In this document: in pieces, positions 27,369 to 33,383 of the stretch
Layout of the letters: each line of letters starts with the position of its first letter
Position numbering within the stretch: position 1 is the first letter of the stretch
Source of the DNA: an uncultured Acidobacteriota bacterium
GTDB taxonomy: Bacteria; Acidobacteriota; Vicinamibacteria; Vicinamibacterales; JAKQTR01
DNA: 64,000 bases
Assembly (NCBI GenBank): GCA_963817885.1
Contig: CAWFQE010000002.1
Span: 704,202-768,201, forward strand
Reading direction: 5' to 3'
The notes under the pieces: model-generated
What the model saw: only the letters and a program-made list of their open reading frames with translations
Told to the model about the DNA's origin: nothing
Databases searched by the model: none
Position numbers and translations under genes: made by a program

Positions 27369-28395
27369 CTACCGCCGCGGCGGGTTGACCCGGGTCTTGA
27401 TGTCCTTGAACGACTCGGTGAGGTCCTTCGTCAGGCCGCTCCGAATCTCTTCCCGCATCTTCGCCGCCATGTCGCGGACGCCCCCTTCAACCGGCTTCGC
27501 CGTGCGTGCCGGACGAGTCACCGTAAAGGCGCCCGTCGCCTCGAGCGATCCGAGAATCCACGCCGCGCCGCGGGCGGCAGAGGCTTCGAAGACGTCGATT
27601 GGAATCCGGCAATAGCCGCCATCACCCCAGCCCTGGCCCCAACTGTTGCGGATGAGCATGGTCCCCTCGTCCATGTCGTATCCGACCAGCAGCATGGCGT
27701 GGGTGCCGCAGTCGGTGCGCACGGCGTCGAGCTCGGCGGCAGTCGGCGTCGGGACACGGCCGGTGCGGCCCGCCTCCTCGTAGCATCGATCCGGCAGGCT
27801 GGTCGCGAACACCACCGGGTGCTCGCGGGCGAGAGCGCCCTTGATGGCTTCCAGGCCATCCACGCGCGCGTATTCCTCCGGCTGATGCGGAAGCGCCACT
27901 CGATAGAGGGCCTGGTCCGGCGCCGTGGTGACCCGCTCAGGATAGTACCGGCCACTCCGGCTCGGGCGGCGCCCCGTACGCGAGGAATGCGGCCATGGCT
28001 TCGGGAATCGTTGCCCCTGCATCGATGTTTTCCCGGGCCGCCATTCGGCGCGAGTTGTAGTAGACGAACAGGCGGCTCAAGTCGACCGGCGCCAGCCCCT
28101 TCTTCCGCTCCAGGAACTCCATGGCGCCGACCATCGCGTTGGCGGTGCAGCTGCCCACCTGGCCCTGGTCCTCGACCGATGAGCAGTCAGGGCGCAGGTC
28201 CACCCTCCGCGGAAGCGACGCCAGGTTCGGCACGGCCCGAAAGTCAGACGGCGACGGGGCCGAGGGCAGGCAGCCGTCGAGGCGGCGCCCCGTGGACGCG
28301 CCGGGCACACCGAACCTCGTGTAGATGGCCTGACCGCAGGACGGACACCGGTTGCCGGTTGGTGGAAGTTCGGCCCCGCACTTGTAGCACTTCAT
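27369..28395 (-). CDS. zinc-ribbon-fused papain-like cysteine peptidase (C1 family); single-base frameshift in a GG run at ~27955-27965
   Basis: MKCYKCGAELPPTGNRCPSCGQ zinc ribbon; catalytic Cys in QGQVGSCTANAMVGAMEF; His/Asn in GTHAMLLVGYDMDEGTMLIRNSWGQGWGDGGYCRIP; deleting one G restores ...PEPEWPYYPERV. Confidence 0.7.
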
Positions 28396-28446
28396 TCCCG
28401 CTCTCCGTTCTGGTCCGGGTATCGCCCGGGAGGGATGACCCAATCG

Positions 28447-29961
28447 CTACTGCACGTGATTGATCCGGAAGTCTCCCGTGGTGCCGTCAGCGAGCGCGTA
28501 CGCCAGGTGGGGCATTCCCGCCGCGCACATGTAGAGGCGTCCATTCCCGGCCATGACAATGCCGCCGCTCGTGCGCAAGACGAACTGCGCTCCCGCGATC
28601 GTGAGGTTGCCGGACATGTTCACCGTCCCGTACCCCACCACGAATCCGTTCGCCACGAAATTCAAGCCGTCATGTTGAACGGCGAACCGGTTGCCGTTCG
28701 GGTCCAGCCAGTACCCGCCGGCGTTGAACGCGGCCGGAGGAGGCGGAGGCGGGGGATTCGGATTCGGCGGCGGGTTCGGGTCCGGCGGCAGTGGCTGCGG
28801 GTTCGGATTCGGCTGCGGGTTCGGGCCATCCAACCCCCGCTCCCCGATCATGTTGCCGATGACGCCGATCACGATGAATGCGGCCACGCCGGCGATCACC
28901 AGCTTCGCGCGCCGCGAGAGCGAGCCAAAGCCGCGCCAGCCGGCCTGGCGGATCGGGTCGGTCACCTGCACCTTCGGCGGCGCCTGCCCCATCGCCGCAT
29001 CGATGGCGTCATCGAGCTCGTCCGCGGTGGAAAACCGGCTGCGCGGCCTGGCGGCCAGCCCCTTCTCGATGAGGTCGTCGATGGCCTTGGGAATGCCGGG
29101 ACGGCTCTTGCCGACCGGCTCCCAGCGCGACTGCGGCGGCGCCTCCATGAGCAGCTCGTAGAACATGACCGTGAGCGAGTAGACGTCGGCAGGCGGCCCG
29201 ACCGCGTCGGCCGAGGTCATCTGCTCGGGGGCCATGTAGAGCGGCGTGCCGACCGCGCCCCCGCTTCGAGCGGAAGCCGGCGCGTTGACGGCCCGGGCGA
29301 TGCCGAAGTCCAGGATCTTGAGGTCGAAGTTGCCGGCGTTCGGATCGCCGCAGAGCAACACGTTCTCGGGCTTGAGGTCGCGGTGGACGACCCCCATCCG
29401 ATGCGCTTCGATCACGCCTGCGAGCATCGACTTCATCAGCCCTACGGCCGTCTCGAGGCTCGTTTCCCTCCCGCTGCGTATCGCATCGACCATCCAGGAG
29501 CGAAGCGACACGCCATTGACGAACTCCATCGTGAAGTAGGGCTGACCATCCGCCTGCGCGACGTCGAACACGGCAACGATGCTCGGATGGCGGATCTGGC
29601 GGGCTGTCAGCCCTTCGGCCATCAGCCGCTTGACCGCGTCTTCGCCCTTCACCAGGTCCGGGTGGATGAGCTTGAGCACCAGCACCTGGCCCGTGTTGGT
29701 GTCCTCGGCCACGTAGACGATGCCCATGCCGCCTTCGCCGACCTTGCGGATCACCTGGTAGCGCCCGGCGAACAACGTGCCCGGCGCGAGGGCCGTCGTC
29801 GTGGACTCACGCATCGGCGCGACCGTGCTGAGGCCGCTGTAGGTGCGGACGCCGCCCCCCGCCGGAGGCGCCGGCGCTGCGGCCGGTGCCGGCCGGGTGC
29901 CGCAGTTCGGGCAGAACACGGCATCGGCCGGAAGCGGGGCCTGGCACTTCACGCAGTTCAT
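28447..29961 (-). CDS. zinc-ribbon-fused Hanks-type Ser/Thr protein kinase, single-pass membrane, Pro/Asn-rich linker, ~95-aa extracytoplasmic C-terminal domain
   Basis: start taken at MNCVKCQAPLPADAVFCPNCG (track ORF begins 81 nt earlier and would overlap the FHA gene); kinase motifs GEGGMGIVY, VLKLI, HRDLKPENVLL, DFGIA, GTPLYMAPE; TM LVIAGVAAFIVIGVIGNMI; linker PNPQPNPNPQPLPPDPNPPPNPNPPPPPPP. Confidence 0.85.
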   Translation of the reverse strand: MNCVKCQAPLPADAVFCPNCGTRPAPAAAPAPPAGGGVRTYSGLSTVAPMRESTTTALAPGTLFAGRYQVIRKVGEGGMGIVYVAEDTNTGQVLVLKLIHPDLVKGEDAVKRLMAEGLTARQIRHPSIVAVFDVAQADGQPYFTMEFVNGVSLRSWMVDAIRSGRETSLETAVGLMKSMLAGVIEAHRMGVVHRDLKPENVLLCGDPNAGNFDLKILDFGIARAVNAPASARSGGAVGTPLYMAPEQMTSADAVGPPADVYSLTVMFYELLMEAPPQSRWEPVGKSRPGIPKAIDDLIEKGLAARPRSRFSTADELDDAIDAAMGQAPPKVQVTDPIRQAGWRGFGSLSRRAKLVIAGVAAFIVIGVIGNMIGERGLDGPNPQPNPNPQPLPPDPNPPPNPNPPPPPPPAAFNAGGYWLDPNGNRFAVQHDGLNFVANGFVVGYGTVNMSGNLTIAGAQFVLRTSGGIVMAGNGRLYMCAAGMPHLAYALADGTTGDFRINHVQ

Positions 29962-32837: not shown

Positions 32838-32849
32838 CTGTTGTCTCCG

Positions 32850-33383
32850 CTAGTCCTTGCCGGGTGTCTTCTTCAACGTCTTGACGGTCACGATGATGTT
32901 CGATCCGATCACGACGATGGCGACCACCGCGGCGGTCTTGTGCTCACCGACCAGCTGCGAGAACCGGTCCCAGGAGCTGAACTTGTTGATGCCTTCCTGG
33001 ATTGCGTCGACGTTCATGAACGTGGTGACGATCGTCGTGCCCAGGGCGAGAATCGCAACCAACCCGGCGGCGATGCGCGACCAGAATCGGACCTTCTCGA
33101 CGTTCCGCGCCGGGCCGGCGGTCTCGCGCGCGTCCAGGACCGCGTCGTAGGCCGAGCCACGATCGAGGGCCGCCTGGCGCTTGTTCTTGTCGACCTTCAG
33201 GAAGTCCGGCTTGATGTCCTTCGACCGGCCGGATTCGGCGTGCGTGAGGTTGTAGGCGCGGCGGTAGAAGAAGCTGATCACCGCGGATATCAGCCACAAC
33301 GCCGCCAACGCGATCAGGATCCAGGAAAGAGCCTGGAGCAGGGAGGAGGCTGTGCCAGGAGGTGTCAGCGCCTCGGTTTGCAT
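32850..33383 (-). CDS. hypothetical polytopic (2-3 TM) membrane protein, first gene of the zinc-ribbon operon
   Basis: TM helices LLQALSWILIALAALWLISAVISFF, IAAGLVAILALGTTIVTTF, TAAVVAIVVIGSNIIVTV; 12 nt between its stop and the SPFH gene start. Confidence 0.45.
   Translation of the reverse strand: MQTEALTPPGTASSLLQALSWILIALAALWLISAVISFFYRRAYNLTHAESGRSKDIKPDFLKVDKNKRQAALDRGSAYDAVLDARETAGPARNVEKVRFWSRIAAGLVAILALGTTIVTTFMNVDAIQEGINKFSSWDRFSQLVGEHKTAAVVAIVVIGSNIIVTVKTLKKTPGKD

Follow-up and report, generated by a model that had tools for sequence, protein, structure and literature searches.

The five-gene cluster and its conservation

Five consecutive open reading frames were found between 33383 and 27369 on the minus strand of a 64,000-nt stretch of DNA from an uncultured Acidobacteriota bacterium (GenBank assembly GCA_963817885.1, contig CAWFQE010000002.1). 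The whole of this stretch is called the window here and coordinates are positions in it unless another locus is named. The frames encode, in order of transcription, a membrane protein with three predicted transmembrane (TM) helices, an SPFH-like protein with a coiled coil (CC) and a C-terminal zinc ribbon (ZnR), an FHA protein with a double zinc ribbon (2ZnR), a receptor Ser/Thr kinase and a papain-like (C1) peptidase. They are separated by gaps of 12, 4, 46 and 51 nt. An earlier note on this DNA, made from the letters alone, had described five tightly packed minus-strand genes in this order and all five frames were found where it placed them. It presented the peptidase as one gene, having missed an interruption by one extra G at ~27948. 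The five genes are as follows.

33383-32850, minus strand: gene 1, 3-TM membrane protein, 177 amino acids (aa)
32837-31164, minus strand: gene 2, SPFH-like protein, 557 aa
31159-30008, minus strand: gene 3, FHA adaptor, 383 aa
29961-28447, minus strand: gene 4, receptor Ser/Thr kinase, 504 aa counted from MNCVKCQ
28395-27369, minus strand: gene 5, papain-like (C1) peptidase, 341 aa once repaired

The conservation of the cluster was examined in one genome per species (GTDB). Search patterns taken from the SPFH family only gave 80 loci, and the presence of the five genes in each locus was scored by tblastn with the five window proteins. All five genes were present in 67 of the 80 loci. Few of these depart from the usual order: L061, L063 and L067 have the kinase gene ahead of the FHA gene, and some loci have extra genes before the peptidase. 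Most of the remaining 13 loci are cut by contig ends and one, a truncated cluster from Planctomycetia, genuinely lacks the peptidase. The median intergenic gaps are 3, 5, 5 and 52 nt, and an orthologue of gene 1 stands directly upstream of the SPFH gene in 75 loci with a median gap of 3 nt. Identities across the loci range from 24 to 91% and the pairwise-identity matrices of the five families correlate with one another (r = 0.75-0.96). On one contig the second and third genes are fused: P0380 (L081 1455-4286) is a 943-aa protein in which SPFH-CC-ZnR is joined to 2ZnR-Ig-FHA (Ig, immunoglobulin-like), and the order on this contig is a divergent ECF (extracytoplasmic function) sigma gene (L081 51-734), the anchor, the fusion, the ZnR-kinase, the C1 peptidase and a second peptidase.

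A full set in 67 of the 80 loci, with hardly any variation in order, goes far beyond what chance would give, and the five genes are one operon and a co-inherited unit. The earlier note had regarded a lack of synteny in other genomes as the sign of an incidental juxtaposition of common signalling genes; synteny was found, and it extends across phyla. Such a juxtaposition would be in keeping with the fact that each domain is common on its own and that no protein belongs to a named equivalog family. It is refuted by the 67 complete loci, whose order is held down to ~24-35% identity, by the tight gaps, by the co-evolution of the families and by the fusion protein, and we give it practically no credence.

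The encoded proteins

The product of gene 1 has predicted TM helices at residues 18-36, 104-122 and 152-170 and, after the first of these, a basic conserved loop, RRxxNLT...PDFLxVDxxxRxxAxxRG. It matched no Pfam, NCBIfam or PADLOC family significantly.

The SPFH-like protein consists of a conserved N-terminal region, an SPFH core (~85-195), predicted long helices (199-313, 321-433 and 448-500 in the AlphaFold2 (AF2) model, about 235-300 aa), a Gly/Ala-rich linker holding a conserved GVAxG motif and a C-terminal zinc ribbon, which gave weak DZR/UPF0547 matches in Pfam. No TM or hydrophobic segment was predicted that could be its own membrane anchor; the separate 3-TM gene lies directly upstream. 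Two features within the genes, the second of which is discussed with the peptidase, are located as follows.

31185-31238, minus strand: C-terminal zinc ribbon of the SPFH-like protein; C534, C537, C548 and C551, invariant in the alignment
27948-27949, minus strand: frameshift site in the peptidase gene, one extra G, from the alignment to the two closest relatives, L001 and L002

The window protein did not match Pfam Band_7 (PF01145) at E<=0.1, and PF01145 is precomputed on many of its homologues. A profile search with the family gave a weak match to prohibitin (E=0.02). When the AF2 model was compared with the PDB using Foldseek, the top matches were all SPFH proteins (prohibitin, flotillin, stomatin, HflK/C and QmcA; E 3e-6 to 1e-3), major vault protein was also matched and the best probability was 1.0. 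The pLDDT (predicted local distance difference test) of the model is 66 overall and 70-85 in the core and helices. The gene 2 product is predicted from this model to have the fold of the SPFH/Band 7 superfamily. The assignment made in the earlier note is upheld by the structural matches and by PF01145 on the homologues, despite the missing Pfam match of the window protein itself.

Among the homologues of the SPFH-like protein a ~25-residue repeat with the rough consensus RRDVAREIELKDRxHDVDLxKVGGE (alignment columns 323-397) varies in number, the difference being one to three copies. This repeat inserts exactly at the break between two of the long predicted helices (window residue ~320, ~31880), as if a coiled-coil hairpin had been lengthened stepwise. 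ARAGORN called a tRNA-Arg(GCG) of 90 nt inside the SPFH coding region (31246-31335, minus strand); Rfam gave no match and the call is almost certainly a false positive.

In the FHA adaptor, residues 9-51 make up a double zinc ribbon with 8 conserved Cys and residues 54-162 an Ig-like beta-sandwich; a disordered linker (166-202) then leads to the FHA domain (~203-383). Pfam detects the latter with E=1.5e-5 and a score of 25.8 against a cut-off of 20.7. The AF2 model has a pLDDT of 83 and a pTM (predicted template modelling score) of 0.79, and its FHA part matches Rad53 FHA1 and GarA in Foldseek. The phospho-threonine-binding residues, G265-R266 and S303-R304-x-H306, are kept in at least 90% of the 72-77 orthologues compared, as are the eight Cys of this protein and the four Cys of the SPFH tail. 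The linker was considered as a Thr-rich phospho-acceptor cluster like the Rad53 SCD and this was rejected: it contains 20% Thr in the window protein and on average 8.6% in the orthologues, which have 5.1% elsewhere in the protein. Instead of Thr-richness, the orthologues have a different short motif in common. Residues 160-205 (~30545-30680) have low AF2 confidence yet are semi-conserved, the motif reading QQ(I/V)(I/V)QNIxLxGAxFxTGG in one branch and GPVVNIGGxSAGHGNxVYISG in Hyphomonadaceae. Judged from its sequence, this may be a docking or polymerisation segment.

The kinase begins with a zinc ribbon (C3, C6, C17 and C20; Pfam Zn_Ribbon_1 E=1.8e-6), followed by a linker with a conserved G-L-x-T and by the Hanks kinase domain (Pfam Pkinase E=4e-42). 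K97, HRDLKPEN (193-200), DFG (218-220) and APE (244-246) are kept in at least 90% of 72 sequences. One TM helix (354-372) is followed by a Pro/Asn-rich linker and a beta-rich ectodomain of ~100 aa. With the Pfam matches, the conserved catalytic and binding residues and the Foldseek match of the FHA domain, the kinase and FHA assignments of the earlier note are secure. Short imperfect direct repeats with a 9-nt period (GGCGGxGGxTTCGG-like) at 28739-28825 are low-complexity coding sequence for the Pro/Asn-rich linker, read on the other strand.

The peptidase is composed of an N-terminal zinc ribbon, a conserved DGCLP motif, the catalytic domain and a C-terminal helical tail. Its gene is not intact in the window: three-frame translation showed it to be split into overlapping frames at 28443-27937 and 28022-27369. 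The sequence around the extra G is GGCCGGTAC in the window and GGCC-GTAC in L001 and L002. The adjacent uvrA gene (22606-25478, minus strand) is split over four frames matching positions 9-185, 203-302, 374-748 and 745-942 of the UvrA model and so has at least three frameshifts within ~2.9 kb. Furthermore, the protein database holds no full-length peptidase match above 79% identity, whereas the SPFH and FHA proteins of the window have 100% matches. Given the state of uvrA and the absence of a close peptidase from a database that holds the identical SPFH and FHA proteins, the frameshift is probably an indel error of the assembly and not the mark of a pseudogene. The three or more frameshifts in uvrA suggest that such errors are common in the source assembly and that 'pseudogenes' in the window should be viewed cautiously.

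The repaired 341-aa sequence matches Peptidase_C1 with E=2e-13 over residues 61-265, in agreement with the earlier note. The catalytic residues Q77, C83, H232 and N250 occur in order and are kept in at least 90% of 73 sequences. Neither a hydrophobic N-terminus that could be a signal peptide nor a TM helix was predicted. There is no propeptide; the Pfam match starts at profile position 1, right after the ribbon and a linker of ~40 aa. In both respects the protein differs from classical C1A enzymes, which are secreted and have a signal peptide and an inhibitory propeptide.

The earlier note had drawn attention to a zinc ribbon shared by four different modules. When the ribbon was scored as a CxxC..CxxC pattern, it was found on all four soluble proteins of the window (SPFH, FHA, kinase and peptidase). 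Among the orthologues the counts were 75/77 for SPFH, 73/74 for FHA and 65/73 for the kinase, and only 23/72 for the peptidase. The claim holds for the window, is near-universal for SPFH and FHA and common for the kinase, and fails as a general rule at the peptidase. Since so few peptidases carry the pattern, the ribbon on all four modules is by this sequence criterion a trait of the branch to which the window belongs and not of the whole system. The docking that the earlier note had read into a ribbon common to the four proteins would likewise be lineage-specific. The ribbon-less peptidases keep the DGCLP motif ahead of the catalytic domain, and the motif even aligns in a distant variant.

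Distribution, regulation and variants

The cluster is carried by Acidobacteriota, Gemmatimonadaceae, Hyphomonadaceae, Rhizobiales, Acetobacteraceae, Limibaculum, Neomegalonema, Sphingosinicella and Gammaproteobacteria. SPFH identity to the window protein is 45-91% in Acidobacteriota and Gemmatimonadaceae and 32-37% in Hyphomonadaceae, of which ~45 species are carriers, cultured strains of Hyphomonas, Henriciella and Prosthecomicrobium among them, for example Hyphomonas polymorpha PS728, Henriciella mobilis M65 and Prosthecomicrobium hirschii 16. One Rhizobiales and one Acetobacteraceae copy are nearest to the Acidobacteriota ones (54-55% SPFH identity), which gives the appearance of horizontal transfer. 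The SPFH protein had 562 relatives at E<=1e-3, and 67 at E<=1e-30, when 1.84 billion representative proteins were searched with a profile; the family is therefore small.

The neighbours of the cluster in the window are housekeeping genes, with phoR, phoB, phoU and pstB upstream and, beyond a small gene for a bPH-domain protein, uvrA downstream. The pho flank is common to the window and just one relative, L002. When the window is compared with L001, its closest relative, the similarity in DNA ends exactly where the cluster does on either side, and the flanks differ even among close relatives. In a repeat search around the cluster, neither direct nor inverted repeats of the kind that might mark a mobile cassette were found at its flanks, and the few short matches were at the level of chance. 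The bPH-domain gene (26913-27278, plus strand) is convergent to the cluster, and its product is a small membrane protein that matches the bacterial PH domain bPH_6 with 22.6 bits. Five Acidobacteriota/Gemmatimonadota loci have weak homologues of it (36-41% identity) at a distance of 2-3 kb downstream of the cluster.

A gene for an ECF sigma factor (PF07638) lies near the cluster in 42 loci, mostly of Hyphomonadaceae, and is usually divergent and ~166 nt upstream of gene 1. A gene for a Ser/Thr kinase-TPR protein of ~800 aa is present in 44 loci in one of two arrangements. In the first it lies behind the sigma gene; in the second, which belongs to a different subgroup, it comes directly after the peptidase gene and has the same strand as the cluster. 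A two-box motif, GA(A/C)CCG-N15-CGCCT, with a spacer of variable sequence occurs at a fixed position of -60 from gene 1 in 21 loci, as against 1.4% of background windows, and from its sequence is likely to be an ECF promoter. Hanks kinases activate those ECF sigma factors that belong to kinase-associated groups (PMC7826278, PMC13147305). The EcfP/PknT and EcfK/PknS systems of the ECF43 type would be similar in that a PF07638 ECF sigma factor and a large kinase-TPR gene lie beside the cluster with an ECF-like promoter before it. They differ in that the sigma/kinase pair here lies outside the core of five genes, as its neighbour, and does not occur in the window. Upstream of gene 1 in the window there is the following site.

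33485-33512, minus strand: sigma-70-like promoter, TTGACT-N16-CATAAT, ~100 nt 5' of gene 1, a consensus match

This putative promoter agrees with the consensus at 10 of 12 positions, and the site is the sole one of its kind in 27000-33800 (shuffles average 0.4).

The distribution would be compatible with an anti-phage or abortive-infection system, in which the kinase and FHA protein would sense infection at the membrane, the free cysteine protease would be the toxic effector and the SPFH cage would restrain it. Its spread is patchy over at least four phyla with signs of horizontal transfer, and both the abrupt loss of similarity to L001 and the variable flanks fit such a system. The protease has no propeptide and hence needs external restraint, and in some loci there are two or three tandem peptidase paralogues. 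Ser/Thr kinases are known defence components, and the kinase domain matches the PD-T4-6 and MAD6 models. However, only the generic kinase domain had matches in PADLOC-DB 2.0, where the other four proteins (membrane, SPFH, FHA and peptidase) matched 0 families, and PADLOC and NCBIfam scans of all proteins gave nothing beyond generic kinase models. No relatives were found when plasmids, phages and IMG/VR contigs were searched, and the cluster lies beside pho/pst and uvrA rather than in a defence island. The type of effector is constant between loci, unlike that of typical conflict systems. The ~45 Hyphomonadaceae species keep the cluster beside the same ECF-sigma neighbour, so that the locus looks vertically inherited and not subject to defence-island turnover. 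A defence function is distinctly unlikely on this evidence. The earlier note had seen the logic of either a conflict or an envelope-surveillance module. Surveillance fits better, considering the ECF sigma/kinase pair and the ECF-like promoter in Hyphomonadaceae; conflict found no positive support in PADLOC, in mobile elements or in the housekeeping neighbours.

A constitutive machine for membrane-protein quality control or microdomain formation should also be considered. In this the SPFH cage would present client membrane proteins to the peptidase, and the kinase and FHA protein would only tune assembly. The fold matches the cages of HflK/C-FtsH, QmcA-YbbJ, prohibitin and stomatin, an SPFH protein and a protease share the operon, the promoter in the window is of the sigma-70 type and the cluster is chromosomal and stable in Hyphomonadaceae. 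Against this, the peptidase is soluble and cytoplasmic rather than membrane-embedded, and the SPFH protein has no TM helix of its own. Both the ECF-type promoter and the presence of a receptor kinase that has an ectodomain point to action that depends on a signal. The rarity of the family (67 clusters at E<=1e-30 among 1.84 billion) would be unusual for general housekeeping. Such a constitutive role is rather unlikely.

Several accessory genes are found with the cluster in particular lineages. A sixth gene follows the peptidase gene in 11 Acidobacteriota/Gemmatimonadota loci, in most of them at a distance of 3-28 nt downstream (e.g. L003 15427-16629); it is absent from the window. Its product has ~400 aa, a signal peptide and a C-terminal aromatic residue, belongs to no Pfam family and may be an outer-membrane partner of the system. 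A lipoprotein of ~370 aa is encoded in 10 loci, extra peptidase paralogues in 11 and a PPP-family metallophosphatase in 14, and secreted stand-alone copies of the kinase ectodomain are also among the lineage-specific accessories. Some loci (L060 13048-17293; L063 7749-9318) have two or three C1 peptidase paralogues in tandem. Loci of the L060/L063 type also encode small secreted proteins or lipoproteins that resemble the kinase ectodomain and have a common C-terminal h-F-h-N-H motif.

Clusters with more distant SPFH-CC-ZnR proteins, which match the profile with E 1e-14 to 1e-36, were found in other loci, including L085. Their contents, where recorded, are as follows.

L082 8001-12575 (with the same order in L083 and L084): SPFH-CC-ZnR, followed in turn by 2ZnR-FHA, a 3-TM homologue of the gene 1 product and an FHA-kinase
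L087 3078-7855: 3ZnR-SPFH-CC-2ZnR protein, then a kinase
L088 386-9239 (likewise L089): kinase, classic AAA+ ATPase, membrane protein, C1 peptidase with a Cys-rich tail, SPFH-CC-2ZnR, 2ZnR protein
L090: 2ZnR-FHA adjoining SPFH-CC-ZnR

The homology was confirmed with hidden Markov models of the families, giving 33.9 bits for the anchor (L082), 96.8 and 34.5 bits for FHA and 86.8 bits for the peptidase. The C1 peptidase of L088 and L089 carries the same GCL motif. Because kinase, FHA and C1-peptidase partners recur around these distant SPFH-ZnR proteins, the variant clusters suggest a wider, uncatalogued family of systems. The combination of kinase, FHA reader, membrane scaffold and protease that the earlier note had picked out in the window is seen again in them.

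Many of the carriers (Hyphomonadaceae, Prosthecomicrobium, Gemmatimonas relatives and Planctomycetia) we take to be budding or prosthecate. The cluster might on this account be a module for cell polarity or for the membrane remodelling of budding and prostheca formation. The presence of a classic AAA+ ATPase in one distant variant cluster and a thematic parallel with archaeal ESCRT loci (PMC10936438) would be in its favour. However, the link between carriers and budding is a putative one, many carriers (Acidobacteriota, Sphingosinicella and Gammaproteobacteria) are not known to bud, and the cluster contains no ESCRT-III/PspA or Vps4 gene. We regard a role in polarity or budding as very improbable.

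Proposed mechanism and relation to known systems

The results above are best accommodated by a membrane-associated complex for signalling and proteolysis, built on an SPFH scaffold, which would act as a phosphorylation-gated platform for the surveillance of membrane or envelope stress and the response to it. We judge the chances of this to be about even. The SPFH protein, having no TM helix, would be anchored by the 3-TM protein on the cytoplasmic side of the inner membrane and would oligomerise there via its long coiled coil like other SPFH proteins. The single-pass receptor kinase would sense a periplasmic or envelope cue through its small ectodomain and phosphorylate threonines on itself or its partners, candidates being the invariant NLT in the cytoplasmic loop of the anchor and the G-L-x-T in the kinase linker. 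The FHA protein with its double zinc ribbon would read these phospho-threonines and bridge the kinase to the scaffold; that it binds the scaffold is argued from the existence of the SPFH-FHA fusion. The propeptide-less cytoplasmic peptidase would be the output, recruited to the scaffold or released from it to cleave a substrate, possibly the conserved GVAxG linker of the scaffold itself.

Several points weigh against such a platform. The signal, the substrate and the phospho-sites are all inferred, as are the topology, the kinase targets, the roles of the zinc ribbons and the trigger. The AF2 model of the SPFH protein is mediocre and the kinase ectodomain is poorly conserved. The link to ECF sigma factors is confined almost wholly to Hyphomonadaceae, and the window has a sigma-70-like promoter instead. 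The patchy spread over phyla and the apparent horizontal transfer, as read from sequence comparison, could equally be expected of a conflict system. No phosphatase is encoded in the cluster, the Pfam and NCBIfam scans of its proteins bearing out the earlier note in this, and the PPP metallophosphatase is near in only 14 loci, which leaves reversibility unexplained.

If the platform is as proposed, it would be a new case of Ser/Thr phospho-signalling controlling the assembly of a membrane complex outside type VI secretion (T6SS) and cell-wall synthesis, and would give cytoplasmic propeptide-less papain-like peptidases a role in bacteria. Bacterial SPFH proteins are widespread and their mechanism is poorly understood; this compact operon adds to one of them an input (the receptor kinase), a reader (the FHA protein) and an output (the protease). 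Cultured carriers, namely several Hyphomonas species, Henriciella mobilis and Prosthecomicrobium hirschii, make the function of the SPFH scaffold directly testable. More tentatively, and with the balance somewhat against it, the cluster could be the best-conserved member of an unrecognised bacterial class in which a TM-less SPFH-CC-ZnR cage, controlled by phosphorylation and read by a 2ZnR-FHA adaptor, holds and releases a papain-like protease. Such a class would be a bacterial counterpart of flotillin- or ESCRT-linked signalling platforms and could act in the repair of membrane damage or in programmed self-proteolysis.

Full-text literature searches found no description of the five-gene set, only thematic neighbours (YdjI and the archaeal ESCRT loci), and the cluster is not in the paper on NTP-dependent conflict systems. 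The earlier note had likewise been unable to match the set to a described system. Neither the domains nor the principles of design are new, the latter being that an SPFH scaffold works with a protease as its partner and that assembly is gated by a kinase and an FHA protein. The set of five genes and its relatives, on the other hand, seem not to have been catalogued.

Of the analogues studied by experiment, the closest, on the comparison of domain descriptions, would be YdjI of Bacillus subtilis. YdjI is a TM-less SPFH protein with a C-terminal zinc finger whose membrane localisation needs YdjG and YdjH, encoded just upstream, and YdjG has two N-terminal zinc ribbons (PMC8581546; PMC11237479). 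The anchoring and phospho-relay steps above were proposed by analogy with it. The pspA-ydjGHI operon thus resembles the cluster in its TM-less SPFH protein with a C-terminal zinc finger, in the membrane-protein genes upstream, in a partner with two N-terminal zinc ribbons and in its relation to envelope stress. It differs from the cluster, which has no PspA/ESCRT-III (PspA_IM30) gene, whose 3-TM anchor lacks the TPM domain of YdjH, whose predicted coiled coil is much longer and whose partners are a Hanks kinase, an FHA adaptor and a C1 peptidase.

HflK/C-FtsH and QmcA-YbbJ (NfeD), which are among the top structural matches, have in common with the cluster the SPFH fold and, as predicted for it, a coiled coil. 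They form cages at membranes and are encoded with, or work with, a protease or NfeD partner; stomatin with the protease of its operon is a further pairing of this kind. In the present cluster the protease is a soluble papain-like cysteine peptidase and not an AAA+ metalloprotease or ClpP-like serine protease, the SPFH protein has no TM helix, there is no NfeD domain and a kinase/FHA layer is added.

In the T6SS, the receptor Hanks kinase PpkA is reported to phosphorylate a threonine on the inner-membrane protein TssL, and Fha to bind to this and trigger assembly of the membrane complex (PMC3953482). The proposed logic of a single-pass receptor kinase and an FHA reader resembles this. The cluster, in contrast, contains no T6SS genes and no PP2C phosphatase, and its FHA protein has a double ribbon and an Ig-like domain and scores 21.7 bits against TagH (TIGR03354), for which the cut-off is 120.

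Archaeal ESCRT-associated loci encode Ser/Thr kinases, FHA proteins and a protein with SPFH, coiled coil and zinc ribbon (Makarova et al. 2024, PMC10936438). There the kinase/FHA genes and SPFH-CC-ZnR occur in different clades and not in one operon, and no C1 peptidase is reported, whereas the present cluster is bacterial and has neither Vps4 nor ESCRT-III. The domain vocabulary is nevertheless the same in both, with kinase, FHA, SPFH-CC-ZnR and zinc-ribbon adaptors assembled around membrane remodelling.

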